Virus record (IMG/VR): IMGVR_UViG_3300010400_000003
Span: 1-64,000 of that record
DNA: 64,000 bases
Origin: a virus
Reading direction: 5' to 3' (one strand)
This document shows positions 1-48,403 of the stretch, piece by piece; position 1 is the first letter of the stretch, and the number at the start of each line of letters is the position of its first letter. Made by a program: the position numbers and the translations under genes. The notes beneath the pieces are model-generated. The model saw only the letters and a program-made list of their open reading frames with translations. It was not told where the DNA came from and ran no database searches.

Positions 1-154
1 ATGGATCTGGCACGAACGACTTGCGCCCTGCGTATTCCATCAATCCTTGATAAACGAGTTCCTGCATGAGCGGACTGTCGCCGCAGTAAAGCCCGCCAGC
101 GGCACGCTTGAGCGTGTGGTCCATGATGTCAATGTGCTCTTGGGTGAGGCGCAT
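1..154 (-). CDS. hypothetical protein, truncated by window edge
   Basis: ATG at 154, reads MRLTQEHIDIMDHTLKRAAGGLYCGDSPLMQELV... open to position 1. Confidence 0.6.
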   Translation of the reverse strand, partial: MRLTQEHIDIMDHTLKRAAGGLYCGDSPLMQELVYQGLMEYAGRKSFVPDP

Positions 155-4840: not shown

Positions 4841-5175
4841 ACGTATTGCAGCCATCCGGTGTTTCCGCTGCCGGACTCCTTAACCCAAATTTTCTTGAGC
4901 AGCGTGTTGACGTATCCCGTGCCAGCGACGGCGGTGACGACGCCCTCGGGATCAACGACGCCAAGCTGGAACAATCCCCCGCCGCCGAGATCGAGCACGG
5001 TGTTGAGGAAGTCCACCAAGTCTTGCAGCGTCACCTTGACGTTGGCCAGTTCGGGATGCGCTGAAATCTGCGAGTCGTCCACCATCTCGAACAGGTCCTC
5101 AAGCGCCAGCGGTCCCGCCTCTGGAAGCTCGGTGATCTTCTTCTTTCGTATTCGTACTGGAGTGCAACAACCCAT
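4837..5175 (-). CDS. small tail-fibre-associated protein
   Basis: KKITELPEA N-terminal motif and DPEGVVTA..GY....IWVKESGSGNTGW fibre repeat. Confidence 0.65.
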   Translation of the reverse strand: MGCCTPVRIRKKKITELPEAGPLALEDLFEMVDDSQISAHPELANVKVTLQDLVDFLNTVLDLGGGGLFQLGVVDPEGVVTAVAGTGYVNTLLKKIWVKESGSGNTGWLQYV

Positions 5176-5176
5176 A

Positions 5177-6013
5177 TCAAGTGGCCTCCAACGCCCGGAA
5201 GATTCCGTTTTCCAGCGCCCGCAGCGTCTCGTCGGTGATCGTACACCAGCAGGGCCGGCGGCATGATTCGCTGGGTCGCACGCGCGTTTGCTCCTGGCAT
5301 TCGAGCATCAGGTCCGCCAGCGCCTCGTCGTAAGTGCCGGTCTTTTGATGGTTGTGAATCGTGTTCGCAACCTGGATGTCGCCGTAGTCCCGCTCGTGCC
5401 CGTATTGCAGGTAGAGCTTCACGGCCTTGCGGAAGTCAATCGCGTCGGAAACCGGGTCGTCGTCGGTCCACTGCGAGGCCAGCTTGTTGCCCGCCCACTC
5501 AATGACCAGTAGTTCGGTGGATTGCATCCAAGGTGCAATCAGGATGTTCTCGCCGTCAATGCAGTAGAGGCCGTCTTGCGCGCGACCGCACGCGGCGTCC
5601 GTGCTGGCGCCGGCCCGGCGGAAGCCCAGCGGCATGACCGGCACGGAGGCGTCGTCAGACTCAGGCGCGGGCTGAAGGTTGGCCGCGAAGCACTCGAACT
5701 CCTTGCGGCCGACTTGGCGGTAGAACACTGGCGAACACCACTCCCGCTCGCTGGTGTCCTCGTCAATCTCAACCGTGTAGAGGAAGCGCACGACGCCGCG
5801 AGGCCGCGGCACGATGGTAGTCCCGCACTTGAACCACGTATTGCAAAAGCGGATGACGTTGGCGTTGCGCGACTTCTCGCACGGGACGAACTTCTGGATG
5901 TCGGACAGGGCTTCGAGGACGATCTGGTCGTGGGCCGAAACCAAGTTCTCGCTTTCTGCGTCCGCCCAAATTTGCCGGCGGATGGAAGTTCTAAGTTGTG
6001 ACAAGGTTTGCAT
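5177..6013 (-). CDS. putative head-tail adaptor protein
   Basis: TLSQLRTSIRRQI N-terminal helix typical of adaptors; size; next to fibre-like genes. Confidence 0.55.
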   Translation of the reverse strand: MQTLSQLRTSIRRQIWADAESENLVSAHDQIVLEALSDIQKFVPCEKSRNANVIRFCNTWFKCGTTIVPRPRGVVRFLYTVEIDEDTSEREWCSPVFYRQVGRKEFECFAANLQPAPESDDASVPVMPLGFRRAGASTDAACGRAQDGLYCIDGENILIAPWMQSTELLVIEWAGNKLASQWTDDDPVSDAIDFRKAVKLYLQYGHERDYGDIQVANTIHNHQKTGTYDEALADLMLECQEQTRVRPSESCRRPCWCTITDETLRALENGIFRALEAT

Positions 6014-6761
6014 TTGTCCTGTGGTCGAACACGGCGAAGCCTAACCGTTTCGCACGCGAGAGCAACTCGTCGCTTATCTGCTTTGGTCTGGTCAGATGAA
6101 TCTCGCTGATCCCGCAAATGAACGCGGCAACCAGTGATTCTGGCGTTAGCAGGTGCGATTTGGAATGGTTATCACTTTTCCAAAGCGGTCGAAAATTCCG
6201 GTAGTGCTGGGCCAGCATTATCTGTTCTTGGTTTTTACCACAGCAGGCAGTTGGAAAAATGTGGTCAAGTTGCCACATCGCTCGGTTCTCAAAAGTCATC
6301 CCAGGCTGGAAATTGGAAGCAATCCAGTTCTGGAAAAATCTGGCCGAGCATCCGACGATTGACTCCGTGGTTGACGGCTTCGTTTTTCCCTTGAACGCAA
6401 ACTGGATCAACGCTCGCAGGCGTATCTTCATTGCGACGTGGGGATGCTTTCTGTACCGATCCGATCTCCGCTTCCTACTGAGTTTGAACACCGTCCAGTT
6501 CTTCAATCGGCTGGCTTTAATGCTGGCCTTGACGTGTTCCTTGTTGGCAAGCTTCCACGCCTTCAGTGTGGCTTTCTTCCTTTCAAAGTTCGCCTTCCTG
6601 TAATCCCTTTCGTACCTCTTGACGTGATCTGAATTGGCCTCGATCCATTCCCGCTTTCGACTGGGATGACGCTTCCTCCACTCAGACATTGTGAACAGTT
6701 TGCGAGCGCGCTTGGCTATCAGCGTCGCAATGCTGGTCCTGAGTTGTGCGAGTGTGTTCAT
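5991..6761 (-). CDS. free-standing HNH-type homing endonuclease
   Basis: basic N-terminus; VGCS...GMTFENRAMWQLDHIFP...HYRNFRPLWKSDNHSK. Confidence 0.85.
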   Translation of the reverse strand: MNTLAQLRTSIATLIAKRARKLFTMSEWRKRHPSRKREWIEANSDHVKRYERDYRKANFERKKATLKAWKLANKEHVKASIKASRLKNWTVFKLSRKRRSDRYRKHPHVAMKIRLRALIQFAFKGKTKPSTTESIVGCSARFFQNWIASNFQPGMTFENRAMWQLDHIFPTACCGKNQEQIMLAQHYRNFRPLWKSDNHSKSHLLTPESLVAAFICGISEIHLTRPKQISDELLSRAKRLGFAVFDHRTNANLVTT

Positions 6762-6985
6762 TGTCGCATCAACGCTTGGTTCTCAGGCGTGTTCAGCAAT
6801 CGCTGAAGCGTTTCGCGATAGGAGTCGCTAACACACCTCGACCATCGCGTTGTTTGATACCAGAATGGAGCAGCCTGATCCAATCGCGGCGCTTCGAGCT
6901 TGCGCGCGAACGCAATCTGCGGCGCGAGCGCCACGACCGCGACCATCGCGCCGAGGCGGGAGAAGAATGATCGGCGGGAGTGCAT
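6758..6985 (-). CDS. Tat-signal micro-protein carrying a capsid-like segment
   Basis: SRRSFF, hydrophobic core, AFA cleavage motif; PFWYQTTRWSRCVSDSYRETLQRL matches capsid residues 260-283. Confidence 0.75.
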   Translation of the reverse strand: MHSRRSFFSRLGAMVAVVALAPQIAFARKLEAPRLDQAAPFWYQTTRWSRCVSDSYRETLQRLLNTPENQALMRQ

Positions 6986-7467
6986 CAGGCGGCCTTGGCC
7001 TTCCTCCGCTTCCCGACCTCGGGCTTGTAGTCCGCTGCCTTTGGAAGTTCCTTCGCGATCTGCGCATTGACGGTCGCCTGTGGCGCCGCCTGGCTCAACG
7101 CCGCTGGCACTTCAGGCGCGGGAGGCGGAGGCGGGTTAGCCGCGACCGCAGCAGGAAGTTGGCTGAGGCGCTGGTCGAGCACTGATGTTGATGGCATCAG
7201 CCGGCCTTTGTAAACTTCTTCCCGCCAGGGCGCTTTTAATGGAGGCGAGTTGCTTTTTTTTTGAAGGTAGTCGCTGTCGAACGTGGCGTAGTCAATCTCA
7301 GTGAGGCCGGAACGATTTTCGCGCATACACTGCTCGAAGCCTGACCACAGCGCCGGGTCTTGCGTGCCCAAGAAGCTTTGAACGCCGTCCACGGTTTTGA
7401 AGGCGACCATCCTGCCGTCGGCGAGGCGCACGGGATCCACGCCAAGATGCCTGAAATATCGCGTCAT
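6985..7467 (-). CDS. hypothetical protein, Pro/Ala-rich C-terminus
   Basis: ORF coupled to downstream gene. Confidence 0.65.
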   Translation of the reverse strand: MTRYFRHLGVDPVRLADGRMVAFKTVDGVQSFLGTQDPALWSGFEQCMRENRSGLTEIDYATFDSDYLQKKSNSPPLKAPWREEVYKGRLMPSTSVLDQRLSQLPAAVAANPPPPPAPEVPAALSQAAPQATVNAQIAKELPKAADYKPEVGKRRKAKAA

Positions 7468-7514
7468 GCGAGGCGACAATACCACTCGCCCGCGCCTTGC
7501 AAAGCGAAAAAGCG

Positions 7515-8207
7515 TCAGCCGTCCGCCGCCAGTCCCCACTTCTTGCGCAGATACGCCGTCGGATTGAAGTCGGTTGCCGGTCCTTGCGGCGCGTGTTTCC
7601 GCACCGCTTCAATCAGATGGTCGCAGCGGGCGTTCAGGCAGATGCCGGCCTTTAGATGGTTGCGCTCTAAGAAGTAGAACAGGTCCGCGTCAATCTCCCA
7701 CAGGTCAAACGCCTCGTCCCACATCCAGCCGTCGCGTCGCCGAAAGACGTTAACGCCGGCGGACGGGTTGCCCGTGTGGATGATGCGGCGCTCGTTCACG
7801 ATCCGGTGCTGGACGCACGGCATGTTCAGGTCGTCGAAGCTCCAGTTGCAGAGCGTGAAGTAATCCGGGTTCTCCCGCCAAAGATCCACGATGTTCTCCA
7901 GCCAGTTCGGAAAGTAGATCACGTCCGATGTGCCGTGGGCGATGAACTCGCCGGTCGTCGTGCGCGTGCCGTCGTTGAAAATCTTCGAGATGCTGAATGG
8001 GCCGTCCCACATTCGGACGCCGATGCCGAGCATCTCGCATTGGTTGCGGAGGCGGTCCAGCCGAACGCTGGGCGGGCTGTTGTTGATGTAGGCCCACACG
8101 CGCGCAGTCGTGGACGCCTGGCAGGTCCGCAACGCCATCACCGCCATGTGATAGGTTTCCTCGGTGGCGGTTGTTACCGGAATTATTACGTCGGCGTCGA
8201 GGCTCAT
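7515..8207 (-). CDS. GT2/GT-A glycosyltransferase
   Basis: DVIIPVT, INNS, FSISKIFNDG, FIAHGTSDVIYFPNWLE, WDEAF..WEIDAD. Confidence 0.85.
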   Translation of the reverse strand: MSLDADVIIPVTTATEETYHMAVMALRTCQASTTARVWAYINNSPPSVRLDRLRNQCEMLGIGVRMWDGPFSISKIFNDGTRTTTGEFIAHGTSDVIYFPNWLENIVDLWRENPDYFTLCNWSFDDLNMPCVQHRIVNERRIIHTGNPSAGVNVFRRRDGWMWDEAFDLWEIDADLFYFLERNHLKAGICLNARCDHLIEAVRKHAPQGPATDFNPTAYLRKKWGLAADG

Positions 8208-8476
8208 GTGTTGGATATTCTGGCGAGCACCTCCCTGAAGTAACTCTCCTGTTGCTCGGTCGGATTTTCTTGCAACTTTTTCAACAAGAAAATCATTTCG
8301 TTTTGCCTTACTTTTTCACAGTCAAGCCCGAGCCACTTCGCGCCCTCCCTGCATGAAAAGCACAATCCGCCTTCGTACACCAAAACCACTCTATGGCAAC
8401 AGCAGGAGCAGATTGGGTAGGCGCTGCCATTGCCATCATGCACCGGAGGCACAACGTATTGCAGCGTCGTGCTCAT
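8204..8476 (-). CDS. Cys-rich hypothetical protein
   Basis: CSCC..CFSC; ATGA overlaps on both sides. Confidence 0.6.
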   Translation of the reverse strand: MSTTLQYVVPPVHDGNGSAYPICSCCCHRVVLVYEGGLCFSCREGAKWLGLDCEKVRQNEMIFLLKKLQENPTEQQESYFREVLARISNT

Positions 8477-9384
8477 GGGATTTTGTCGAAGTCCTGTATT
8501 TTCATCCCGTCGAACCAATCCCTTTCAGGATGGCCGTTGTGACGCGGGAAAGGTCCACCCCGAAGAACCGCCGCCCGAATGGCGCGCAGATCCCAATGAT
8601 GCTCCGTGCGCTTGCGGACGCCGAACCTCGCCAGCGCCCCGTGCCCCTTGTCCTCCGCGTCGTTCGGCCATCGCTCCTTGCTGGAACGCCGCATGGCTGG
8701 CCCGCATTTCCCGGGAGTGCGGTCCTCGATCAGCTTCAGCCGTGGATCGTACTTGAGTGGAAATCCGTTGTTCTTGAGCATCAGGCCGAAAATGCAATCC
8801 TCCATCGAAAGGCTGTCCATCAGTTCCTCGTAGCCGTTTACCTGAAGCGCCCATTCGAGCGGCAGGGCGTTGACGCATCCGAACCACCAAGAGCCGGGCG
8901 CGTCAGCCAACGCCGACGACACGAGCGCGCGGTGATCGCGGCCTTGCGGAGAACGCGGGTCGCTACCGTCCAGCGTGCCCGGATCGGCTATGATGCCGCT
9001 CTCGACAACCATGCCGTGCCGCTTCTCGTAGCTGCCGCACACACCGTAGCCGCCGGCCATTGCGTCCTCGACGGCTGCGCGCCAGCCAGGAAGCAGGACG
9101 CCGCGATCGTCACAGAACATCACCCATTCAGTGCGGCAAAGGCAAATGCCGGTGTTCGCCGCGTTGCTCTTGGCCCACCACTGGTCTTTGGTCAGGCGGT
9201 GAGGACCCTGCCAGACTGTTGGTTTCGGCGGATGGAAAGTTGCGGCGTGCCAGCCTGCGTAATTCTCTAGGCCGAGACCGATGACGATAATCGGGCAATC
9301 ACTCTCACGCCGAACGCTGTCGTATAGCCACTGGAACTCCGGCTCGTGGCGGGCGGTCGTGAACACTATGGAGAACGCGCTCAT
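8473..9384 (-). CDS. GT2/GT-A glycosyltransferase
   Basis: AANTGICLCRTEWVMFCDD, VNGYEE, EDCIFG. Confidence 0.85.
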   Translation of the reverse strand: MSAFSIVFTTARHEPEFQWLYDSVRRESDCPIIVIGLGLENYAGWHAATFHPPKPTVWQGPHRLTKDQWWAKSNAANTGICLCRTEWVMFCDDRGVLLPGWRAAVEDAMAGGYGVCGSYEKRHGMVVESGIIADPGTLDGSDPRSPQGRDHRALVSSALADAPGSWWFGCVNALPLEWALQVNGYEELMDSLSMEDCIFGLMLKNNGFPLKYDPRLKLIEDRTPGKCGPAMRRSSKERWPNDAEDKGHGALARFGVRKRTEHHWDLRAIRAAVLRGGPFPRHNGHPERDWFDGMKIQDFDKIP

Positions 9385-10004
9385 TTCAGCTTTTGGAACA
9401 CCGCCCAATCGTCTCGCTCGGCTCCAGATGACTTCACGACTCGAAACAACTCCGTGCATCCTGCCGCAAGCAGTGTGTCCACCGATTTCGTCACTTCGCC
9501 GCCGTCCCAATGAAGGTCATCGAGCACGATGAACCCGCCGTCGCGGACGTTCGGCGCGAACCTCTGAACGTCACGCATCGCCTGCGCTCCATGATTTCCG
9601 TCTACGTGCAAGAGTCCTATTGTTGCTGGCGGCGTCACGTCATCCGACCGCTTGCGAATCAATCGTGTCACGTTCTGCAACGCCATGCGGTTCACTTGGT
9701 CAAGGAAGTAGTCGTGCATCCTTTTGTGATTCTCGGCGGACCCCCACCACGCCACGTTTGCCGGCCCCTGCCCCTCGATGGACGCCGCCGGCTCATATGG
9801 GTCAATCCCGATCACCATGCCGTGCCCGATCTCCCGGCAGGCCAGCGCCATCGGCAGGAGGCTCTTGCCGGACCAGACTCCGATTTCGACGATAATGTCC
9901 GGGCGCGTGCCGATCACTAGCGAGGCGAGCGTCTTGGCCTTGGCCTCAGTACACCATCCGTGCGGCGAGGCGCACACTTCGGCGATTTGGTCGTAGAGGT
10001 TCAT
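9381..10004 (-). CDS. class I SAM-dependent methyltransferase (Methyltransf_24-like)
   Basis: IVEIGVWSGKS, IGIDP, LHVDGNH, GGFIVLDD. Confidence 0.9.
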   Translation of the reverse strand: MNLYDQIAEVCASPHGWCTEAKAKTLASLVIGTRPDIIVEIGVWSGKSLLPMALACREIGHGMVIGIDPYEPAASIEGQGPANVAWWGSAENHKRMHDYFLDQVNRMALQNVTRLIRKRSDDVTPPATIGLLHVDGNHGAQAMRDVQRFAPNVRDGGFIVLDDLHWDGGEVTKSVDTLLAAGCTELFRVVKSSGAERDDWAVFQKLK

Positions 10005-12640: not shown

Positions 12641-12691
12641 AAATTCGGAGGCGCGGGTTAATCGGCCACGCGCCTGATCTGGTCGTTAAAA
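12585..12691 (+). repeat. attC5
   Basis: GCCGAAC-5nt-GATGCAGGCGACGTGGC...GCCACGCGCCTGATC-5nt-GTTAAAA. Confidence 0.88.
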
Positions 12692-14358
12692 TTCAAATGC
12701 GATTCCGTCACCTTCACCAAACACGCCGCCGTGTCGTTCACCCCGACGGACACCATCCAGCCGTCGTCTTGCGCGACCGCGCCGTAGGGTATCACGACGT
12801 TTGGCTTCCAATGCGCAGCCCCGCTGCGCCACTCGTGGCCGCTCAGAATCGGATGGCTGGAAACGGCCAGCATCTCGAACGGCGGTTCGCTGTTCATCAC
12901 GTACGCCCCCATGTAGTAACGCACGTCGCGCGGCTTGTCGCTGATTGGGATTTGACTATGGAAGAACCGCAGCCACTTCCCGCGATACGGTATCGGAGGC
13001 GTGCCGCCGCGGATTTGTCCCCACGCCCAGGAAAGCGACGGCGTCCGCCATTCCTCATCTGGCTTGCCATCGCGGATCCTCACAACGACATGCTCGGGCG
13101 AACAGGCGTAAATGAAATGCGTGCGGCCTTCCAGGTCGAAGAACACCCAATTCTTTTCGAGCGCACTGCCGTCGTTGTGGCCATATTCAGGCCGGCAGAA
13201 TTCCGCCAGTTCGGCGCCGCTGTCCGAGACTTTGATTTCTCCGTAGGCCATGACGCAGCGGAAACGATTGCCAGCCACGCCCGCCACGACAAACGAGCCG
13301 AACAGGCGATCATCACGGGTCCACAGTCGCATGTCCTCGACGCTGGACGTGCTCAAATCGGACGGCATCCGCAGCGGCAAATGCCTGATGGCGGTCGCCG
13401 TTGCCGGGTCGAGTTGCACAATCGCCAGTTGCGTTTTCCACGAGCCGTGCGGGTGATGGCGGTAGGTGGACCACAGATTGCCGTTCCACTGAATGAGCGA
13501 CGGGTTGTAGCCGTGCGCTTCCAGGCCCATGATGGGACGCTGCGACGGTCGCCGCACGCCGGACAATACCTGCCGGGCCATGTGCAAAATCTCCGGCTTG
13601 CGAGCGCTGTATTGCGAGTACCGGCAATGAAGCTCGAACCGCTTTTGCCAAGGCGTGCCGTTCCACGGCGTTGGCAGGTCGCGGCTCAACGCTATGACCG
13701 GCACTTTCGACGCCGCGCTCAAATGCAGCGGCAGGCTGTCGCCGGCAATCAGCAGTTCCGCGCGGTCCATCAATCGTATCAAGTCGTAAGGCTTTTCCGC
13801 TCTCACTTCAGATAAGTCGAGCGCGCGACACTTTGGCAACGCTTCCTGAACGGCCTGAATCAAATCGTCCTTTTCAGGGAAAGGCGATGCTACGCCGCTG
13901 AGAGCCACGAGGATTATTTGCAAATCCACGTTCAGATGCTTCTCCACTAGCGCAGCCTCGCGCAACACATCCCGCCGGTCAAACTCCAACGGCAACCGCC
14001 GCCAATCGTTTGGCCGTCCGAGGTTGGCCCAAATCTCGTGGACAAAGCTTTCCCCAACCGGCTTGCGCGTGCCGGCGGACTCGACGGGATTCACCCAGCG
14101 AATCATTGAGCCGTTCGACTGCTCTTTGATCCATGACACCGCCCGATGCACTGTGTCGCCATCCTGGCCGCGCTTCCACGTCTCGGGGTAAACGATCGGG
14201 GTGACGTAGCTCACGCCGTCCAAGATGTCCTCGTAGTTCTGCGCGACGACGATGCTCGTCTTTTCGCCGGTCGCCCGAAAGCGGTCCAGCGCGAACGGCA
14301 GGACGATGCACAAATCCCCGTAACTGCCCAAGCAGACGATTTGCTCGCGGTTGCTCAT
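12658..14358 (-). CDS. GT9-like glycosyltransferase fused to GH130/GH43-like beta-propeller
   Basis: LGSYGDLCIVLP and LIAGDSLPLHLSAA (GT9-like); YNPSL, EDMRL, EKNWVFF, RGGTPP, VVIPYG (propeller). Confidence 0.8.
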   Translation of the reverse strand: MSNREQIVCLGSYGDLCIVLPFALDRFRATGEKTSIVVAQNYEDILDGVSYVTPIVYPETWKRGQDGDTVHRAVSWIKEQSNGSMIRWVNPVESAGTRKPVGESFVHEIWANLGRPNDWRRLPLEFDRRDVLREAALVEKHLNVDLQIILVALSGVASPFPEKDDLIQAVQEALPKCRALDLSEVRAEKPYDLIRLMDRAELLIAGDSLPLHLSAASKVPVIALSRDLPTPWNGTPWQKRFELHCRYSQYSARKPEILHMARQVLSGVRRPSQRPIMGLEAHGYNPSLIQWNGNLWSTYRHHPHGSWKTQLAIVQLDPATATAIRHLPLRMPSDLSTSSVEDMRLWTRDDRLFGSFVVAGVAGNRFRCVMAYGEIKVSDSGAELAEFCRPEYGHNDGSALEKNWVFFDLEGRTHFIYACSPEHVVVRIRDGKPDEEWRTPSLSWAWGQIRGGTPPIPYRGKWLRFFHSQIPISDKPRDVRYYMGAYVMNSEPPFEMLAVSSHPILSGHEWRSGAAHWKPNVVIPYGAVAQDDGWMVSVGVNDTAACLVKVTESHLNFNDQIRRVAD

Positions 14359-14558
14359 TCCTTCACAAGTTTGATGCTCTCCGCGCTCACCCACGCTGCG
14401 CCATCGCCGTGGCTCGGGTGGATGCGAACCTCGTCCCGTCCGTAGCGTTGTTGCACGGCCTCGACAATCACAGGAATCGCAAGCGCGCCGTCGGATCGCA
14501 ATTTGGGCCGCCAAATCGCTTTCCTCCAAACGTATTTTTCCAGTTCAGGCTTGGTCAT
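14355..14558 (-). CDS. hypothetical protein
   Basis: ATGA-coupled ORF. Confidence 0.65.
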   Translation of the reverse strand: MTKPELEKYVWRKAIWRPKLRSDGALAIPVIVEAVQQRYGRDEVRIHPSHGDGAAWVSAESIKLVKE

Positions 14559-21165: not shown

Positions 21166-21666
21166 TCAGGTAGCGATTCCAGCGCAGTCGTTTCTGGAAA
21201 AGCATCTGAGCCGGTTATTCTCCGGTTCGATCGGCCTGACGTTTGAGAAGTGAGCAGCCTTCAGAACTTGTGATTCAATGGTGAGATCGAAGGAACCAAG
21301 CGGGGCGATGTGGTCGCACTCCCAAAGGTCGCCGTAGTTCTCCCACGACCAGCCCGGCTTGAACTGAGAGGCGATATGCCTGCGAAAGTCTGCTGGTGAG
21401 CAGGCGAGCACCTTTGAGTGACGTTTCGACTTTGGGTGGTAAACGATGGCGTTTCGAACTGCGGCGTAGATCCGGCGCATGTTGATGTGGTGCCTCCGAG
21501 GCTTGCTAACCGCGGCGAGGTATTCGGCCTTGGTTTTCATCCCGAGCCGCAAGCGACGCGATGCGTTGATTTCCTCTCGGTGAGCGTCTTTGTGGGCGAG
21601 TATATTCGCCCGGTTAGCGGCGTAGTAGGCTTTGTTCCTGGCGCTTCGTTCCTCGATTGTTTCCAT
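21166..21666 (-). CDS. free-standing HNH-type endonuclease
   Basis: LACS...GWSWENYGDLWECDHIAP..SFDL...HFSNVRP. Confidence 0.8.
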   Translation of the reverse strand: METIEERSARNKAYYAANRANILAHKDAHREEINASRRLRLGMKTKAEYLAAVSKPRRHHINMRRIYAAVRNAIVYHPKSKRHSKVLACSPADFRRHIASQFKPGWSWENYGDLWECDHIAPLGSFDLTIESQVLKAAHFSNVRPIEPENNRLRCFSRNDCAGIAT

Positions 21667-21721
21667 AGGCGTGATTCCAGCAGAACCACGTGGAACTGTC
21701 AACGGTTTGTTTCCAGCGAAA

Positions 21722-21982
21722 CTACGTTTGTCCGCGCACGCCGGCGTCCTGTCCATGGCCGTCGGGTTGGCGGCGTGGCTCGACCTGCGAGTGCCCTCGG
21801 GATGTCAGCCAAGCCGGCCAAGTGGCCGGATCTTCCGGGCGGTAGGTCGCGGTGTAATCAGGCGGCGGTAGCGGGCAACCGAGCGGGCAGGGTTCGTGGA
21901 CGGTGATGGTCGGGGCGAATCGGTCGGGGCGGGCGATCATGCCGGTACTCGAGCAGATGGGGCAGGGGCGTCTGGCGCTCAT
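21722..21982 (-). CDS. Zn-finger hypothetical protein
   Basis: CPICSSTG, CPLGC. Confidence 0.45.
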   Translation of the reverse strand: MSARRPCPICSSTGMIARPDRFAPTITVHEPCPLGCPLPPPDYTATYRPEDPATWPAWLTSRGHSQVEPRRQPDGHGQDAGVRGQT

Positions 21983-38899: not shown

Positions 38900-40516
38900 T
38901 CATAGATGGATTACCGTCCCTGTGTTCTGCCGCTTCCCGACGTTCATCCGGTCCTCCTGCGTGATGATTTCCTCCGCGCACTCGGCGATCAACGGGTAGC
39001 TCAAGGCGTCGAAGATGTGCTTGTTCTCGTCGTTGACGACGAAATTGAGCCGGCCAGCGCCTTTCTTGAGGTCGCGCAGCATCCGCTGGACGGCCACGCA
39101 TTGGGCGCTCACATGCAGCCGGCCTTGGGAGAGCAGTTTCTTGACGAGATTGATCCGCGCGCGAACCGAGCCGTTCGGCTTTGGCACTCCAATGACGGTT
39201 AGGCGGCCCTTGGAAGCGGCGAGGATTTCCAGCGCCGTGTAGGTGTTTCCGGCCGCGCTGTACTTCTCCAGCGCCGACGAGTCGGAATACGACGCCTCCA
39301 GATTGAACTCACGCCCGGAGTCGGACTCAATGTCCTCGATCAACCCCATGAAGGCGATCGTGAAATCCTCGATGGACACCCAATCGCCATGCCTGTCAGC
39401 GAAGTTCTCCATCTTGCCCGACTTGCCGACGCTCTCAAGTTCTTCGAGGACGTTGAAGTGCTTGCGGTCGCCGATGTAGAGGCGGTCAATGATGACGCCC
39501 GCGTGGTTGGCGTCGCCAGGGTCGAGGCCCGTCACCAAGTCAATCGAGCCGCGTGATGGCTTGATGACCTCGTAATCGTCCTCGCTGGCGAACTCGATGC
39601 TGCCCAAGACGTGGATCGCCGGTTTGAAGAACGACCGGAAGTGCCGCGACTGGTCGCCGTCGCCCCAAATCCATTTGCCCATCACATCTCGCGCGTACAG
39701 GCCGGGATCGTGCCGGCACTGCTCTTTGAGTTGGCGCAGCAGCCTCGGGTCGAGGCGCAGATTGTCCTCCGGGATCATGGTGATAACCTGCCGCTCGGCC
39801 ATTGACTGCCGCCAGTCCGGCTGCGGCAACGGCTCGTAACCCTCAGCTTCGCAGCCGGCGACGTATTCATCGTAGGACAGCTTTGGCTCGACGAACCACG
39901 TCTTGTAAATCCATGAGTCCGGACCGCGGGGAGACGGATTGGTGTCGGCAATCCACAGGTGATCTTCGTATCTCAGATGCGGCATCCGCAGGCACGCCGA
40001 GGTGGTCGAGAGCACAATCCGGTCGGAGTCCTCCTTGTCGAACGCCATCAACTCGGGAAAGTAAATGCCGCTGAACTCCTGAGACTTCACCTTGTCAACG
40101 ACATCGGGAACGTGGTCGAGCGAGAACAGCCGGCACTCGGATTCTCCGCCGTAACGGTTGCGGATGCTGAAATAAGGCGTGCGCGTGTCGCCGATGACTT
40201 TCCACCCGGGTTTGCCGTCGTTGTTGAAGCTCGTGTAATTGAAGCCAATACCGGCGCCGATCCATTCCGGGATGGTGACGCGGTGGAGGCTCTGCCAAGT
40301 GCCGCCCTCCTTCGAGTTCTTGATCGTTGGCGCGAACATGGCGAAGCTGGCGCCGGGAGTGTCGTACATGTGGCGGACGATTCGATGGAGCACCGCCCAG
40401 GTCTTGGCTGAAAATCTCGGGCCTTCAACGAGCAGAAACCGCGCGGTCGAATTGAACACATCCCATTGCAGACCGTGCTTGTTTGCGTTGAGGTCAGGAG
40501 CCCACGGTTGCGACAT
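38900..40516 (-). CDS. terL: terminase large subunit
   Basis: GPRFSAKT Walker A, IYFPE Walker B, DTNP, GLDPG nuclease motif, KHIFDALSY. Confidence 0.88.
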   Translation of the reverse strand: MSQPWAPDLNANKHGLQWDVFNSTARFLLVEGPRFSAKTWAVLHRIVRHMYDTPGASFAMFAPTIKNSKEGGTWQSLHRVTIPEWIGAGIGFNYTSFNNDGKPGWKVIGDTRTPYFSIRNRYGGESECRLFSLDHVPDVVDKVKSQEFSGIYFPELMAFDKEDSDRIVLSTTSACLRMPHLRYEDHLWIADTNPSPRGPDSWIYKTWFVEPKLSYDEYVAGCEAEGYEPLPQPDWRQSMAERQVITMIPEDNLRLDPRLLRQLKEQCRHDPGLYARDVMGKWIWGDGDQSRHFRSFFKPAIHVLGSIEFASEDDYEVIKPSRGSIDLVTGLDPGDANHAGVIIDRLYIGDRKHFNVLEELESVGKSGKMENFADRHGDWVSIEDFTIAFMGLIEDIESDSGREFNLEASYSDSSALEKYSAAGNTYTALEILAASKGRLTVIGVPKPNGSVRARINLVKKLLSQGRLHVSAQCVAVQRMLRDLKKGAGRLNFVVNDENKHIFDALSYPLIAECAEEIITQEDRMNVGKRQNTGTVIHL

Positions 40517-40568
40517 GCGCCCAAAATAGCCCTTGCGCGGGGCGGGCGGCAAGTCTTAGAGTCGCGGC
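40517..40568. promoter_or_regulatory. overlapping divergent leaderless promoters
   Basis: plus strand TTGCGC-18-TAGAGT-6-GTG; minus strand TTGCCG-18-TATTTT-6-ATG. Confidence 0.55.
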
Positions 40569-42971
40569 GTGGTTGACCTCGATCTCGTCAAATGCGACAG
40601 CGACTTTCTGAAAGGAAGGTTCGATGCGGATGAAGCCAAGCGCACCGGCACGGCGGACGAGAAGAAAAAGGTTACGGACCTGCTCAACCGCATCCGCTCG
40701 CGCGTTCAGGAGGGAATGTCCCGCAATCTTGCCGACTGGCAATGGGTGTACGCGGTGGACAAGGCGCTGGACACGCCGTTCCGTCAGTTTTACCCGCGGC
40801 TTTTCGGCGCGCTCGAAGGCGGGGACCTCAAGGGCTGCTGCGACATCATGCGCGGGCTGAACCTCGACAACTGCATCAGCGTCACGAAGGACAAGGACGG
40901 CAAGGAGTCGTATTCGGTGAACGAGGAAAACTTCGTCATCTTGGTCGGCCTGTGCTCGTCATACCTCAAAGCCCGCTGGGCGAAGATCACCAACGACCGC
41001 CGGGCAAACCCGTTCCACAAATACGAGCCGGCGAAACTCACGACGGTCAACCGGACGAAATGCGAAGTCATCACCGACCGGGTGCAGGTGATGAGCGACC
41101 AGTACGGCTACTTCGAGGTTTTCAAGCAGGCCGTTCACAAGATGCTGGCCTACTCGTTTGCCATCGCGTTCATCAAAGAGGAGTGGCATACGGAGGAGCA
41201 GCAACGGACGGCGACGGTGAAGGACGCGCTGGAATCCGGCAATGGAGAGAGCGGCGAGCCGAAGGTCAAGGTGGGCGATCCGGTGGACGAGATCGTGAAG
41301 GAGGGCCTGCGTTACGACCTGCCCAAACCAAACCGCGTTTACCGCGACTTGGCGCACCCGCTCTACACGATCAACACCGACACCGGTTGCCAGTTCGGAG
41401 GCTATTGGCAAATCGTGCGGTATCGCGAGTTGAAGAACGCTGGGTTCTGGAACGACGACAAGATTTCGCTCGGCAACGGGACCAACCCGCTGGTGGATTA
41501 TGGCAGCCAGTACTTCCAAGTTTACGACAACGCGATCAAGGTCGCCCCGTGCTGGCGACAGCCGACGGTGGACGACACGGCGGTTGCTCCAGGCGCGAAC
41601 ACGAGCACCAACCTCGAAGCGAACTTGGCCAACCAGTGGTACGGCACGGACCATCTGGACCAGGGCGCGCTCGTCACGAATCATTTCGAGAAACTGGTGC
41701 CGAAAGACAACGGGCTGGGAGACTATCCGCATCCGGTGTGGTTCAGGTTCGTCATGGCGGGCGACGGCTGCACCGTCCTGTGGGCGTGCGCGCTGCCACA
41801 TATCCCGATGTGGTACATGGGCTACGACGCCGACGAGTCGCGCGCCAAGAATCCTTCACTGGTGATGGAGATTCTGCCGTACCAGTACCAGTTCGAGACG
41901 GCGCTTTCGCAGATCATCCTGAGCAACCGGCAAAACCTGTCTAACCTGACGCTGCTCAATACCGACGTGCTGGACGACAAGCAGGATTGGGTTAAGGAGA
42001 TCGCCGGCTGGGGGAACACGATTTGGAAGAAGCTCAACATCGTTCCGGCGTCATTCAAGCGGCTGAACCGGCTGCTGCAAAGCAATTCGAGATCGCAGCA
42101 GGAGATGGGGATTTCATTGACACTACCTAAGGCGAGCCTGCAAGAACAGATTGCTGTGGCCAACATGGTTCTCGCCACGTTGGAGCGGGCGCTTGGAATG
42201 TCGAATCAGGAGATTGCCCAAACGGCCAGCCACGAGATTTCCGCGACCGAGACGCGCAACCTGGCGGCGGCCACGAGCAACCGGCTGACCTTCACGGCGA
42301 CCGCAGCCGACATCGGACGCGATGCGTGGAAGAAGCAGAGTTACGCCTACCTGATGGCCTTCGGAGACGACGACTTTTATGGGCACATTCCCGCCGACAA
42401 CCCGATCACCCAAGAGCAACTTGAGAAGATGGGCTTTACCTACGTGGACCATGATGACTTGGCTGGTACGGAGAAATACCGGCGAGTACGCGCCAAAAAA
42501 GAGACATTGGCGCTCCCGCTCCACGAATTCGCGAGCACGCGCGACGGCGAGGACCGCACCAGCGACTCAGCCATCGCGGCGGTGATGGCGACCTTGGCCC
42601 GAGACGTGATGAACAACCCGATGCTGGCCCAAGCGGTCGGAGCGGAACAAGGGTTGCAATGGATCAACGCCATCGGTTACTTCTCGGGGATGCCGAGGGA
42701 CTTCAAGTTGCGCATGGCCGGGAAGCCGCTGGAGCAGCAGCAGGCCGAGATTCAGCAGATGCTCAAACAGGTCGCAGAGCAAACGCTGGCGGCGGCGGAT
42801 GAGCACATCATCAAGGCGATCACACCGCTGGTGGAGCAGGTGAAATCGCTCGGGCAGGAGATGGCTCTGGTCACTCGCTTTTTGGGTATCGCGGCGAACG
42901 GAAACGGGAACGGCGGGCCGCCGCTGGTCACGCCTCCCGGAAATGCTCCGATGATGTCACCGAGGATGTGA
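40569..42971 (+). CDS. portal protein
   Basis: 800 aa, next to TerL and upstream of scaffold/capsid; SATE motif; Q-rich tail. Confidence 0.75.
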   Translation: MVDLDLVKCDSDFLKGRFDADEAKRTGTADEKKKVTDLLNRIRSRVQEGMSRNLADWQWVYAVDKALDTPFRQFYPRLFGALEGGDLKGCCDIMRGLNLDNCISVTKDKDGKESYSVNEENFVILVGLCSSYLKARWAKITNDRRANPFHKYEPAKLTTVNRTKCEVITDRVQVMSDQYGYFEVFKQAVHKMLAYSFAIAFIKEEWHTEEQQRTATVKDALESGNGESGEPKVKVGDPVDEIVKEGLRYDLPKPNRVYRDLAHPLYTINTDTGCQFGGYWQIVRYRELKNAGFWNDDKISLGNGTNPLVDYGSQYFQVYDNAIKVAPCWRQPTVDDTAVAPGANTSTNLEANLANQWYGTDHLDQGALVTNHFEKLVPKDNGLGDYPHPVWFRFVMAGDGCTVLWACALPHIPMWYMGYDADESRAKNPSLVMEILPYQYQFETALSQIILSNRQNLSNLTLLNTDVLDDKQDWVKEIAGWGNTIWKKLNIVPASFKRLNRLLQSNSRSQQEMGISLTLPKASLQEQIAVANMVLATLERALGMSNQEIAQTASHEISATETRNLAAATSNRLTFTATAADIGRDAWKKQSYAYLMAFGDDDFYGHIPADNPITQEQLEKMGFTYVDHDDLAGTEKYRRVRAKKETLALPLHEFASTRDGEDRTSDSAIAAVMATLARDVMNNPMLAQAVGAEQGLQWINAIGYFSGMPRDFKLRMAGKPLEQQQAEIQQMLKQVAEQTLAAADEHIIKAITPLVEQVKSLGQEMALVTRFLGIAANGNGNGGPPLVTPPGNAPMMSPRM

Positions 42972-44039: not shown

Positions 44040-45518
44040 ATGACCCAATCCCCAGAACTCGTCATCAAACGCACCCAAGTTATCGTGGACGCGCCCAAGC
44101 CGCCGCCCGAGCCTGAGAAGGTGAAGCTGCCGGAGACGGAGGCGGAATTGCAGCAACGCCGCAAGGACGTGGAGGCGGCGATGTGGGGGCCGAAGCCAAA
44201 GCCTGCGCCTGCCGCTCCTGAACCGGAAACCACCGCCGATGCCGCGCCGCCCGCGCTGGACGAAGGTGGCGCACCTGCTGCCGCCGCGCCCGCCGCTGCT
44301 GCTCCACCCGCTCCCGCCCCGGTTGACACCGATGCGCTGATCGCCAAGACGGCGGCCAAGATCGGAGAGGAAGTGGGCAAGGCGATGGATCGCCAGCCGG
44401 CGAAACCCGAGCCAGAGCCGGAGGCCGAACCAGAACTCACGCCCGAGGACGCACGCGACGCCGAGATCATCGCCAAGATGGAAGAACTCGATCCGTCAGT
44501 CAAAGGCAAGGCGGAGGCGTTCAAGGCGTTTGCCCTGCGGCGGTATGACTACGAAACGGCGTGGCGCGAGAAACACCCAGGCGCGACGTTCAATCCCGAC
44601 GACGCCGAGCACGAGGAATTTTACAAAGGCCAGCCCGAGATTGACCCGGACGCTTTTCAGGAGGCCAAGGACGAATTGCGCGTGGATCGAAAGGTCGCGC
44701 AGCGGCTCAAGCCGATTGAGGAAAAGACGGCGGCCGACGAGCGCCGGACAAAGACCGACCAATCCATCGCCGCCGCCGCACCCAAGATCGCCTCGAACGT
44801 GTCGGAAAAGATTCTGGACACGGTTGGCCGGGTCAGCGCCGACGTAGCTGCGTTGCTCAAAGACATGAACCCGCTGGCGCTCAAGCCGGAGGAAATCGCG
44901 ACGCTCGAAGAAGCCGACCCGATCGTGGCCGAGGTCTTGGGGCCGCTGGTGACGAACCAGTTGGCGCCGATGCTCATTGAGTTGGAAAAGTCGGTTGCGC
45001 CCGGCGCGGAGTACGCGCTCGACCCGCGCACCAACCCGGTCCATGCCGAGATCGCCCGCTACCTTGGCAAGTTCGAGGAGTCCAAACCTGGCCTGCGCGA
45101 AGGGCGAGAGTTCCTGACGCTGGCCGAGATGAACCGCCGGTCGCTCGCGATTCTGAACGGCAAAGGCTCGGACGAGGCCAAGCGTGGCAGGCTGGACGAC
45201 CTGCAATCGCGCCACTGGACGGCCACGGTGGACGACATCCAAAAGACCATCGTGGACGACATTTCGACCCGCGCGAAGGCCGCGGTGGACCGCATTGACG
45301 GCCTCGGCAGGCGCAAGTACAAGCCTGAACCGAAAACGACCGCCGCAAAACCCGCCGCGCAGCCGACAGCACCAGAACCGCCGCAGCAGCCCGCCGCCAA
45401 CGGAAAACCACGCCCGCCTGCGGTCGCTTCGCAGGCTACTGTGATGGACACCTCGCGCGCCGGCAAACAAGCCGGCAAATCTTTTGGACAAACCGCTGTT
45501 GAGGTTCATTGGGGCTGA
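44040..45518 (+). CDS. putative scaffolding protein
   Basis: P/A/E-rich, directly upstream of capsid gene. Confidence 0.7.
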   Translation: MTQSPELVIKRTQVIVDAPKPPPEPEKVKLPETEAELQQRRKDVEAAMWGPKPKPAPAAPEPETTADAAPPALDEGGAPAAAAPAAAAPPAPAPVDTDALIAKTAAKIGEEVGKAMDRQPAKPEPEPEAEPELTPEDARDAEIIAKMEELDPSVKGKAEAFKAFALRRYDYETAWREKHPGATFNPDDAEHEEFYKGQPEIDPDAFQEAKDELRVDRKVAQRLKPIEEKTAADERRTKTDQSIAAAAPKIASNVSEKILDTVGRVSADVAALLKDMNPLALKPEEIATLEEADPIVAEVLGPLVTNQLAPMLIELEKSVAPGAEYALDPRTNPVHAEIARYLGKFEESKPGLREGREFLTLAEMNRRSLAILNGKGSDEAKRGRLDDLQSRHWTATVDDIQKTIVDDISTRAKAAVDRIDGLGRRKYKPEPKTTAAKPAAQPTAPEPPQQPAANGKPRPPAVASQATVMDTSRAGKQAGKSFGQTAVEVHWG

Positions 45519-45572: not shown

Positions 45573-47339
45573 ATGGCTGATCGTTTCCTGGAGACACCGT
45601 GTCAGGTGTCCATTTCCAATAACTACGACACCTGCGGGACCATCACACGCGCGTCTATCGCGCATCTGACCCCCACCCAACTCGAATCGCTGTTCAAGCC
45701 CGGCGGACTGTTCGCCGACATGGACGCTTGGTTTCGCACCTCGTTTGAAATGCAGGCGTGCGGGACCCGCACCAACGGCATGTACGAGTGGCTGATGTCC
45801 TCGAACAAGCAGATGGGGCATCTGGTCAACACCCGGAAGGTCGAGAAAGGTCCTGGATTGGTCGAGCCGTTCGTGCTCGGTCGCCAGAATTCCGTCATCA
45901 ACAACGATTATTGGGCGCTCACCGGCGGCGTGGCCAACAGCGGTTACACGCCCGACACACCAGCCAACGCCGGCACGGGCGCCATCAGCGCCGGCCCGCT
46001 GACGACCGCTCAGAAGGCGCTTGGAGCCGCTGGCGATCGCGTCATCCGCGTCATCACCCGCTACGGTTTTGAACTGACGGCTAACTGGTTCGTCTCCAAA
46101 GATCGCGTGATGATCTTCGGCAAGGCGACGGGAGGTTATTCGACCCGCGGACAGTGGCGCGTACTCGCCGCGGCTGCCAACACGGCCGGGACTTATGTGG
46201 ACGTGCTCGTCACGAGTGAGAACGGCGGATCGGCAACGCCCTACGACACCGCGCCGACGACTGGCGTGTTGCTGGCACTCGGCAACAACGTCAACGATTA
46301 CGAAAGCTGGTGCTACAACCGGCCCACGCAAGATCCGCGCAAGCGCGTGCCGTTCTGGTATCAGACGATGCGCCGCACCCGCTGCGTCAGCCAGCAATAC
46401 CGCGAGGTCTTTGCCCGTCTCATGGAGTCCAACAAATACTTCCAGGAGTTCGGCGACCTGCCGCTGGCCGAGCGCAACCGCCAGGACGAGGAAGAATACC
46501 AGCACCGCTGGGTCAACACGTTCTTTTGGGGCAAGGCCATTTCCGCCAACCAGACGCTCGCCAACTGGCAGTCGCTCGACCAGATCACGACCGTCTCGGG
46601 TGTCAACGCCGATCCGGCGATCGTCGGAAACCTCATCTCCTACCGCGCCAACATGGTCGGCGTGTACGAGCAGCTTCGCGCCTGCGGTCGCGTGCGCGAT
46701 CTCCAGAACAACAAGCTGAACTTCTACGAGTTCCTGGACGAGATTTACAACATCTACCGCGCCCGCAAGTCCCAGGGCAAGCCGGCCAACTCGATTGACG
46801 TTTACACCGATTCCGTCACGGCGGCCAACTTCGAGACGGCGGCGATCAACTACTACAAGAACGAGTACGGCGACATCCTGCGCATCCCGCTCGAAGTCAC
46901 CGAAGGCCAGAACATGACGCTCGGGTTCGCTTGGCGCTCGTACAAGTTCAAGCGCCCGCTGGGCGTGACGGTGAACATCATCACCCACGAGTTCTTCGAC
47001 GACATGCTCAACGCGGGCATGACCGAATCGGTCGGTTCGAGCACGCGGTTCATGGCGATTCTCGATCTCGGAAAGGGTGGCTCAATCTACCCCGGCCTGA
47101 TCGCCACGAACATGAAGAAGCGCACGCACGGCGAGCTTGAGCAGATGGCTCGGATTGACTCCACGGTAAAGTGCGTCATGGAAAGCGTGACGGAGGAATT
47201 CTCGCTGATGTCGGAATCAGTTACCGCCATAAATGACTGTCCAGCAAACAGCCTTTGGTTGGAGGGGCTACAAGACGCTGTTCCCTCGACTGCCGGTAAA
47301 TCCGGGGACTACTATAACCTGTACGTCGATTTGTATTAA
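45573..47339 (+). CDS. major capsid protein
   Basis: position after scaffold, strong codon bias, followed by terminator. Confidence 0.75.
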   Translation: MADRFLETPCQVSISNNYDTCGTITRASIAHLTPTQLESLFKPGGLFADMDAWFRTSFEMQACGTRTNGMYEWLMSSNKQMGHLVNTRKVEKGPGLVEPFVLGRQNSVINNDYWALTGGVANSGYTPDTPANAGTGAISAGPLTTAQKALGAAGDRVIRVITRYGFELTANWFVSKDRVMIFGKATGGYSTRGQWRVLAAAANTAGTYVDVLVTSENGGSATPYDTAPTTGVLLALGNNVNDYESWCYNRPTQDPRKRVPFWYQTMRRTRCVSQQYREVFARLMESNKYFQEFGDLPLAERNRQDEEEYQHRWVNTFFWGKAISANQTLANWQSLDQITTVSGVNADPAIVGNLISYRANMVGVYEQLRACGRVRDLQNNKLNFYEFLDEIYNIYRARKSQGKPANSIDVYTDSVTAANFETAAINYYKNEYGDILRIPLEVTEGQNMTLGFAWRSYKFKRPLGVTVNIITHEFFDDMLNAGMTESVGSSTRFMAILDLGKGGSIYPGLIATNMKKRTHGELEQMARIDSTVKCVMESVTEEFSLMSESVTAINDCPANSLWLEGLQDAVPSTAGKSGDYYNLYVDLY

Positions 47340-47431: not shown

Positions 47432-48403
47432 ATGAAAGCAATGACATGCACAAAAACCCACACGCAGTTGCCCTTGGACGCCGGGGCGGTAAAATCGGAG
47501 GGCGTTCCCGTTCGCGTCGGAAAGTTCTTGCGGCTCGCAGGAACGTCAGACTTGCAGGACAAGCGAGAAAGAAGGCTGCAAGCAATTCGGCGCTACAAGG
47601 CCAAGCTCAAAGCGGAAACCCGCATTGACGGCAGGCTGTTCCGGTTCGTGTTTCGGAATCCTGAATATCGGAGGATCGAGAAAACGATTGATTGGAAGAA
47701 GGTGTTTGCCGAAAGCCGATCTGAGATGAAGCCGATACCGCTGTCGGAGCACTTCCAGGCCTGGGCGGCAACCGGCGATGCCAACATGCTTAGATTTCTG
47801 TCGGTGCTGCTGGCCCTGAACTACCGATCAATTTGCGAGATCAAGCACAACCACGTTTCGCAAATGCTTTTCAAGCGACCGTCGCAGCGGATGTCGAGGG
47901 AGAAGCGCAAGGAGGTAAACGCGAAGTATCGCGATTATCGCAAGGAGTATTACAAGAAGCGCAGGACTGATCCTGAATACGTCGCTCAACTCCGCAAGCA
48001 GGGCGCCGTGGATTTTCAAAAACACAAGCAGCGCATTTACGCCTACCGCAACAACCGTCGCAAGACCGACCCCCAATACAAGATCAGTAGCAACCTCCGC
48101 ACGTACATCTACCAGCGCGTCGGCAAGAAGAACACGACGGGCCAGAGCCGTTTCCGCGAGATCGTCGGTTGCTCGATTGAGGAGTTTTGCAAATGGCTGG
48201 AGTCCCATTTGGCACCCTGGATGAATTGGACGAATTATGGTTCCGGTCCCGGGCAATGGAGCATTGACCACACGCGGTGTTGCGCGTCGTTTGACCTGAC
48301 GGACCCCGAACAGGTGAAGCAGTGTTTTCATTATTCCAATATGAAACCCATGCTCCACCGCGACAACCTCTCCAAAAGCGACAAACTTCCCGCAATCTCG
48401 TGA
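47432..48403 (+). CDS. free-standing HNH-type homing endonuclease (true start may be later)
   Basis: IVGCSIEE...MNWTNYG...WSIDH...SFDLTD..Q..CFHYSNMKPM...NLSK. Confidence 0.85.
   Translation: MKAMTCTKTHTQLPLDAGAVKSEGVPVRVGKFLRLAGTSDLQDKRERRLQAIRRYKAKLKAETRIDGRLFRFVFRNPEYRRIEKTIDWKKVFAESRSEMKPIPLSEHFQAWAATGDANMLRFLSVLLALNYRSICEIKHNHVSQMLFKRPSQRMSREKRKEVNAKYRDYRKEYYKKRRTDPEYVAQLRKQGAVDFQKHKQRIYAYRNNRRKTDPQYKISSNLRTYIYQRVGKKNTTGQSRFREIVGCSIEEFCKWLESHLAPWMNWTNYGSGPGQWSIDHTRCCASFDLTDPEQVKQCFHYSNMKPMLHRDNLSKSDKLPAIS
47446..47628 (+). CDS. small basic protein
   Basis: KNPHAVALGRRGG.IGG motif; overlaps 5' part of the endonuclease ORF. Confidence 0.5.
   Translation: MHKNPHAVALGRRGGKIGGRSRSRRKVLAARRNVRLAGQARKKAASNSALQGQAQSGNPH

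Follow-up and report, generated by a model that had tools for sequence, protein, structure and literature searches.

A phage micro-protein family that couples a Tat-type signal to an exchangeable segment of the phage's own capsid or portal protein

The locus described here raises the question of why a phage should encode, besides its capsid gene, a very small protein that joins an export-type signal to a copy of a piece of that same capsid protein. It lies in a stretch of 64,000 nucleotides (positions 1 to 64,000 of IMG/VR virus record IMGVR_UViG_3300010400_000003; hereafter the window), which is the first 64 kb of a phage genome of 75,285 bp. The genome has a 123-bp direct terminal repeat (window 1-123, genome 75163-75285) and is therefore complete; its sequence occurs in one soil-metagenome DNA run only, and no RNA run is listed for the locus. 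The gene in question, a micro-open reading frame (micro-ORF) at 6758..6985 on the minus strand, encodes 75 amino acids plus a stop, as the initial annotation had reported, and its product carries a head of the twin-arginine translocation (Tat) type followed by a tail that copies a segment of the major capsid protein (MCP). As far as could be found, it belongs to an undescribed two-module family in which a conserved Tat-type signal is combined with an exchangeable capsid or portal segment: the family is unnamed in Pfam, PHROGs and NCBIfam, and literature searches for a Tat signal together with a capsid mimic or capsid decoy returned no description of such proteins.

The head (residues 1-27; 6905..6985, minus strand) begins M-H-S-R-R-S-F-F, which contains the first part of the motif S-R-R-S-F-F-S, and continues into a hydrophobic core that ends in A-L-A-P-Q-I-A-F, with A-F-A at residues 25-27. 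The core of the tail (residues 40-65; 6791..6868, minus strand) is the copied part, assigned to segment class A of the classes described below. The ATG of the micro-ORF has one base in common with the stop of the upstream gene of 184 aa (6985..7539, minus strand; TGATG), and at its other end its stop and the ATG of the next gene downstream overlap (ATGA). A search of 5000-9600 returned no promoter-like site and no excess of terminator-like sites over shuffled sequences; with stop/start overlaps on both sides, the micro-ORF thus reads as an internal gene of an operon. A profile of the micro-protein family matches this place at an E of 5.7e-30. The AlphaFold2 model of the micro-protein has a mean predicted local distance difference test (pLDDT) score of 87 and a predicted template modelling (pTM) score of 0.34, with helices at residues 4-26, 54-64 and 67-74 and an extended stretch after the head helix; judged from this model, the tail does not look like an independent fold.

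The likeness to the capsid protein was recovered by BLASTP, which aligned micro-protein residues 26-64 with MCP residues 248-284 with 19 of 39 identities (E 5e-10). In the ungapped core, 16 of 26 residues are identical between micro-protein 40-65 (6868-6791) and MCP 260-285 (46350..46427, plus strand), which reproduces the match at 16 of 24 positions that had first drawn attention to the locus. The DNA of the same region is identical at 45 of 78 bases (58%), and the same codon is used for 5 of the 16 identical residues. The initial annotation had taken this divergence to imply selection on the protein sequence, and we arrive at the same conclusion, since synonymous sites are saturated and the conserved residues are nevertheless kept. 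In an all-against-all BLASTP of the 979 ORFs of the 75,285-bp genome, the micro-protein and the MCP formed the sole paralogous pair (E 6e-7) besides three HNH endonuclease genes. The tail scores 26 bits against a profile of the MCP family, and its conserved positions W42, Y56, T45 and R47 coincide with the conserved MCP residues W262, Y276, T265 and R267. According to the models of both proteins, the predicted micro-protein helix 54-64 is in register with MCP helix 274-286, the segment copied from the MCP comprising most of a beta-hairpin (256-273) and this next helix.

The donor is a protein of 588 aa (45573..47339, plus strand) without a Pfam, PHROG or PDB sequence match, the PDB having been searched with the MCP profile. 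Its AlphaFold2 model, of moderate quality (pLDDT 71), matches HK97-fold capsid proteins, namely those of Vibrio phage VP1 (9in6_M, E 7e-13), crAss001 (7qof) and SU10. Foldseek searches with the model gave E values of 7e-13 to 1e-10 against the VP1 and crAss001 capsid proteins, and among the 102 PDB matches at E<=0.001 those listed are capsid or encapsulin shells. The genes stand in the order TerL (large terminase), portal, scaffold-like gene, MCP. The label of capsid protein, originally given from the sequence, holds by this fold search and gene order, and the 588-aa protein is, on the strength of its modelled fold, the major capsid protein. The model also has a beta-rich insertion in the HK97 fold at about residues 100-250. 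More than 347 homologues were found at E<=0.001, many of them on contigs of about 75-85 kb, with identities of 55-93% among the 120 listed; the INPHARED phage collection contained no match to either the micro-protein or the MCP.

How widespread the combination is became apparent from sequence searches. A word-based search returned three relatives, one of the same architecture and two with a near-identical head and tails from other parts of the MCP; the tail of P0124 matches MCP residues 13-49 (E 2e-11), and that of P0123 matches residues 370-413 and then 362-369. A profile search of 1.84 billion representatives yielded 261 cluster representatives at E<=0.001, the clusters being defined at 50% identity. 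Lengths among the 150 representatives listed range from 50 to 142 aa, and the head is common to all of them, with the consensus M-x-x-R-R-S-F-F-K-x-L-A ... A-L-A-P-E/Q-I-A-F, followed by a short R-x-K-L-E-x-P linker and by exchangeable tails of 25-55 residues. A search for this head on longer proteins (180-2000 aa) came back empty, which is weak evidence, and a scan of species genomes found no relative. The complete genomes examined have one micro-ORF copy each, and in three genomes the micro-protein family profile picks up the MCP gene itself (E 5e-6 to 1.5e-3).

The origin of the tails was assessed with an MCP family profile built from 121 MCPs, against which 153 tails were scored. At least 5 bits were reached by 93 of the 153 tails, compared with 2 of 1530 shuffled and 0 of 153 reversed ones, and at least 8 bits by 70 tails and by none of the controls. 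In profile coordinates, the segments used are 255-298 (37 tails), 380-435 (29), 355-403 (9), 525-572 (8), the N-terminal arm (5) and 300-335 (4), and no tail matched regions 100-250 or 440-520. Class profiles built from the tails of four classes, applied with thresholds above the best shuffled score, placed 125 of the 153 tails in six MCP segment classes. Use of a segment hardly follows its conservation in the MCP (Spearman 0.13), and several equally conserved stretches are never used. In the MCP model, the segments used are the N-arm helices, a hairpin with the following helix, a long helix, a helix-strand-helix unit, and, towards the C-terminus, a helix with two strands; beta structure prevails in the unused parts, among them the insertion of about 150 residues. 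By analogy with the usual HK97 topology, we infer that the used segments would be elements of the HK97 core and the unused parts would lie more outward. Some tails join two MCP segments or reorder them relative to the MCP, and the A-class tails have a consensus of their own across 48 diverged members. The tail of a distant relative, G001, had no significant match in its own genome and a weak resemblance to MCP segment B (E 0.1). A subgroup (P0215, P0221, P0232, P0234 and loci L010, L031 and L034) has longer tails with no capsid match and a shared end motif, L-Q-S-P ... C-S-P-S-S ... R-S.

A second head protein also serves as donor. The window encodes a probable portal protein of 800 aa (40569..42971, plus strand), so named from protein-language-model feature hits of 0.95-0.96 to the SU10_portal, P22_portal and Head-tail_con clusters and from its position between TerL and the scaffold-like gene; a PDB sequence search with it returned nothing. 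Three tails (P0247, P0269 and L035) copy a conserved segment of this probable portal, and the P0247 tail matches the portal genes of five phage loci with E values down to about 4e-9 (tblastn). The equivalent of this segment in the window lies at about 41865-41939 and is not the one copied by the window's own micro-protein.

In three independent genomes (those of the window, G002 and L029) the tail was compared with the capsid protein of the same phage: protein identity is 46-50% and DNA identity 49-58%, and at conserved residues the third codon positions agree in only 31-54%. The tail copies are old, yet the residues they have retained are those invariant in the MCP family. A tail resembles the MCP of its own phage no more than it does other MCPs of the family (ranks 5/124 and 8/110), and heads 97% identical carry tails of different classes, as in P0127 (class A) against P0125 and P0134 (class B). 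A general test of independence between tail class and head similarity is biased by the 50% clustering of the library, and the individual cases of near-identical heads are relied on instead. The near-identical loci L032/L033, L010/L011/L012/L030 and L007/L008 have zero nucleotide differences in the micro-ORF and are uninformative on selection. The initial annotation had named a decayed duplication as what might undo its proposal; the stop/start coupling to both neighbours, the homologues in hundreds of clusters and the retention of conserved MCP residues at saturated synonymous sites identify a real gene, and a plainly decayed duplication is excluded as its origin.

The picture extends to another capsid lineage with the 6.2-kb metagenome contig L029, whose MCP is assigned to Gp23 (PF07068, E 7.5e-28), an unrelated sequence family. 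Side by side on this contig are two micro-ORFs that share the head and carry different segments of the resident MCP: tail 1 matches residues 92-131 (20/40 identities, E 8e-12) and tail 2 residues 266-295 (13/30, E 1e-5). The Pfam Gp23 model detects two tails directly, and tail 1 of L029 aligns to residues 110-127 of T4 gp23. Immediately upstream of the tandem micro-ORFs is a gene for a putative phage metallopeptidase (3169-3708, plus strand; PF18894, E 4e-14). Since a phage with a Gp23-type MCP has Gp23-type tails, the architecture is not peculiar to one capsid family, and the tail is taken from whichever capsid the phage has. The co-variation of fragment and cognate capsid that had been suggested as a check is thus found at the level of the capsid family.

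The head is the part on which a family assignment can be attempted. Among 94 relatives the columns R4, R5, F7, F8, A16, A19, A21, P22, A25 and F26 are invariant or nearly so, and the window's S-R-R-S-F-F-S agrees with the Tat consensus S/T-R-R-x-F-L-K. TIGR01409 scores the window protein at 13.8 bits (E 0.059), under the curated cut-off of 16.7, and matches 35 of the 94 relatives at E<=1 (best 8e-4); PF10518 matches 19 of the 94 (best 5e-4). These two are the only families that recur among the relatives, and searches of the family against Pfam, PHROGs and NCBIfam gave nothing other than the Tat signal. Of the twin-arginine signal first proposed for residues 1-27, then, the motif, the hydrophobic core and A-F-A are all present, and the profile score is borderline. 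The Tat signal is the only family membership that the sequence would allow to be claimed, with a sub-threshold score for the window protein. A hydrophobic region and a following basic residue occur throughout the family; the window protein has A-F-A, and relatives mostly have A-F-R, A-F-G or similar, so that cleavage is doubtful family-wide and many members may stay anchored in the membrane. Language-model feature neighbours of the micro-protein include Tat-signal small subunits (Fe_hyd_SSU cluster, score 0.90), a likeness that is probably due to the signal.

In every context examined (the window, L001, L023, G002 and L030) the micro-ORF lies among head genes. It follows the 184-aa gene, and is coupled to it, in the window and in L001; a homologue of that gene immediately precedes the micro-ORF in L001, and in G002 and L022 one comes straight after the MCP gene. 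The order in L023 is portal, micro-ORF, scaffold-like gene, MCP, that in G002 is MCP, 184-aa homologue, HNH gene, 278-aa homologue, micro-ORF, and in L030 the micro-ORF is beside the TerL gene. The block that comprises the 184-aa gene, the micro-ORF and the 278-aa gene onward is inverted and away from the MCP gene in the window, whereas in G002 it is on the same strand after the MCP. Further head genes of the window are the large terminase (38900-40552, minus strand) and the scaffold-like protein (44040-45518, plus strand). The phage also encodes a primase/helicase and has glycosyltransferase-like genes at 7515-8207 (minus), 12658-14529 (minus) and 49893-50951 (plus), the types being GT2-like, GT9/GH130-like and GT4, one of them inside the structural block.

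Endonuclease genes are frequent neighbours of these loci. Between the micro-ORF and the next structural gene of the window is a gene for an HNH-type homing endonuclease (5991..6761, minus strand), one of three paralogous HNH-type genes (E 4e-10 to 7e-12); the others are at 21166-21756 (minus) and 47432-48403 (plus), the last directly after the MCP gene. The product of 5991-6761 starts M-N-T-L-A-Q-L-R-T-S-I and that of the next gene, 5177-6013 (minus strand), starts M-Q-T-L-S-Q-L-R-T-S-I; such near-identical starts suggest an insertion of the endonuclease where the 5177-6013 gene begins, with duplication of the N-terminus of that gene's product. In L001 the micro-ORF abuts a homologue of 5177-6013 and has no endonuclease beside it. 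Homing endonucleases also follow the MCP gene in G002, in L029 (homing-endonuclease-like, with a NUMOD3 motif) and in T4 (SegD after gene 23). They may supply the recombination that moves capsid pieces, which leaves the retention of those pieces unexplained.

As to what the micro-protein does, the reading that we favour, tentatively and from sequence, is that it would be a mimic held at the Tat machinery, diverting a factor that recognises conserved capsid segments, probably a host sensor. The tail would mimic a conserved capsid epitope as it occurs in newly made, unassembled capsid protein, and would compete with nascent MCP or portal for a host factor that recognises the invariant segments. 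That factor might be an MCP- or portal-sensing immune protein like Lit/Gol, CapRel or Avs. As partners do in Tat 'hitchhiker' export, the bound factor would travel with the Tat head and the tail as far as the TatBC receptor or pass through it, and with the sensor sequestered at the membrane or expelled, capsid production could proceed without abortive infection. A Tat signal on an unfolded passenger of about 50 residues that offers only a conserved capsid face would be a device for relocating whatever recognises that segment. A target of pattern recognition would look much as the tails do, with the residues invariant in the MCP family retained and no special likeness to the resident MCP. Features that resemble an arms race are that tails turn over, that tandem copies carry different segments, that invariant residues are used, and that MCP and portal are the only donors. 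MCPs and portals are documented triggers of several defence systems (PMC9712102; bioRxiv 10.64898/2026.01.04.697583), and the Gol region that activates Lit has been described as the most conserved part of gp23 (PMC3014915). Tail 1 of L029 falls in the first quarter of gp23, as does Gol; the two may overlap, judged from a review description and from the position of Gol, and not from an alignment with a published Gol sequence.

Several points weigh against such a decoy. About 28 of the 153 tails match no identifiable capsid or portal segment, and the late position in the head module, including that directly after the portal gene in L023, suits a role in assembly equally well. A decoy that binds a sensor could activate rather than block it. 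Many members with A-F-R may stay anchored, so that the membrane would lie between the tail and a cytoplasmic sensor, and the copied segments, which include HK97 core helices and strands, may represent buried rather than exposed epitopes. Moreover, we know of no anti-defence protein that uses a Tat signal.

Only slightly less likely than the decoy is a role in head assembly, as a membrane tether or as a regulator, though on its own account we consider it doubtful. The Tat-type head would dock at the inner membrane and the tail would enter an MCP or portal subunit interface, tethering or nucleating procapsid assembly there, in the functional role that gp40 plays with membrane-bound gp20 in T4, or delaying MCP polymerisation until portal and scaffold are ready. 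Such a role agrees with the constant place of the micro-ORF inside the head module, where in L023 it follows the portal gene just as genes 67 and 68 do in T4, and with the restriction of donors to MCP and portal, the two head proteins that form the shell. The tail, modelled as an extended stretch and helices with no globular fold of its own, is what would be expected of a piece that folds on its partner, and a protein that self-assembles can naturally be inhibited at its interfaces by competing fragments of itself. In T4, prohead assembly starts on the membrane-bound portal and requires the phage chaperone gp40 (PMC9958956). However, an essential contact in morphogenesis should rely on a single unchanging segment that co-evolves with the MCP of the same phage, whereas six or more segments are used and exchanged between near-identical heads, and the tails are no closer to the resident MCP than to foreign ones. 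A true Tat substrate would also end in the periplasm, away from assembly, and there is no sequence similarity to T4 gp67. The variety of segments, their exchange and the absence of a special likeness to the own MCP fit a decoy for a host factor better, and the late position fits assembly at least as well.

It is rather improbable that the micro-protein is exported to act periplasmically or extracellularly, for instance in lysis, on the envelope or as a secreted peptide with which infected cells signal to one another, the capsid-like sequence being mainly raw material from the nearest highly expressed gene. In favour of this, conservation is strongest in the Tat-type head, the Tat system accepts small unstructured passengers, and some tails lack a capsid match, one group of them sharing an unrelated C-terminal motif; but about 80% of the tails keep the invariant residues of the MCP segment in spite of saturated synonymous sites, and raw material explains neither why MCP and portal are the only donors nor why certain segments only are used. 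Least probable of all, and in our opinion very much so, is a by-product of traffic by the HNH or GIY-YIG homing endonucleases encoded beside the MCP gene and the micro-ORF, in which break repair would repeatedly add MCP-gene fragments to the end of a conserved small ORF and leave them to drift without function. HNH genes adjoin both loci in the window (5991-6761 and 47432-48403), endonucleases are present after the MCP gene of G002, L029 and T4, and the frequent exchange of tails suits this process, which may well be how they are acquired. Drift, however, would erase the match, and instead the conserved MCP residues persist where silent sites have been randomised; likewise, the A-class tails hold a consensus across their diverged members, and the micro-ORF of L001 stands without an adjacent endonuclease. 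A diversity-generating retroelement was set aside, though not refuted, as a source of variable tails; one head with unrelated MCP segments is unlike a mutagenised template-variable repeat pair.

The mimic at the Tat machinery that we favour has partial parallels among known systems. Like the role proposed here, the Tat hitchhiker small subunits (those of periplasmic [FeFe]-hydrogenase, and HybO of [NiFe] hydrogenase 2) are small proteins that alone have a twin-arginine signal and carry a signal-less partner to or through the translocon. The small subunit of the [FeFe] enzyme is a split-off piece of the catalytic fold. A hitchhiker subunit of this kind replaces a piece that its partner lacks, whereas the phage MCP keeps its own copy of the segment; the phage family, furthermore, has no cofactor and no homology to these subunits beyond the signal, and its passenger varies by phage. 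Inhibitory (dominant-negative) fragments resemble the tail in that a short piece competes for the native interfaces of the parent protein, a concept that comes from laboratory fragment screens. No natural conserved phage family of self-derived fragments with a targeting signal was found described in our literature searches on Tat signals with capsid mimics or decoys. By analogy, the micro-protein may work like a hitchhiker small subunit and a competitive mimic at once, and would be a member of neither group.

Defence systems and head helpers share some features with the micro-protein and differ in others. In capsid-sensing systems, such as the T4 Gol peptide with Lit and EF-Tu, CapRel, and Avs7/Dsr1, short conserved MCP regions trigger the defence directly (PMC3014915, PMC9712102, bioRxiv 10.64898/2026.01.04.697583). 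That a phage protein can block a sensor where its structural trigger binds is illustrated by DSAD1 against DSR2 (PMC11087589). Known inhibitors of sensors, unlike the micro-protein, are not copies of the trigger and have no export signal. T4 gp40, which acts with the membrane-bound gp20, and gp67 and gp68 are small proteins encoded beside the portal gene, with roles inside the prohead or in its initiation at the inner membrane (PMC9958956); in contrast to what is proposed for the micro-protein, they are not Tat substrates. Genes 67 and 68 lie directly after the portal gene in T4 (L041, 6782-7449), a position that the micro-ORF shares in L023 only. BLASTP gave no alignment between gp67 and the micro-protein at E<=100 and no significant similarity between gp67 and gp23 (E 0.6), and we know of no report of T4 head helpers that copy MCP segments.

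If the tails are functional mimics, the family marks which capsid and portal segments matter to some cellular partner, a read-out made by evolution in hundreds of phages and in at least two unrelated capsid sequence families. It would then offer a handle on the recognition of conserved structural proteins by bacterial sensors and on the response of phages whose structural proteins are not free to mutate, or else on how head assembly is placed and timed, and it would represent an unusual natural protein, made of a targeting signal and an exchangeable piece of another protein of the same genome. A bolder version, which the sequences make conceivable and which we regard as somewhat unlikely, is that of an 'epitope cassette', a fixed Tat signal that would be re-equipped time and again by recombination with the MCP or portal segments that the sensors of local hosts recognise, and by which those sensors would be cleared from the cytoplasm or pinned to the membrane via the hitchhiker route in several capsid lineages. 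If true, the family would be without precedent among anti-defence families in two respects, its derivation from proteins of the phage itself and its reliance on an export pathway of the host. Even with no function assigned, the family is large (261 clusters), undescribed and easily recognised.

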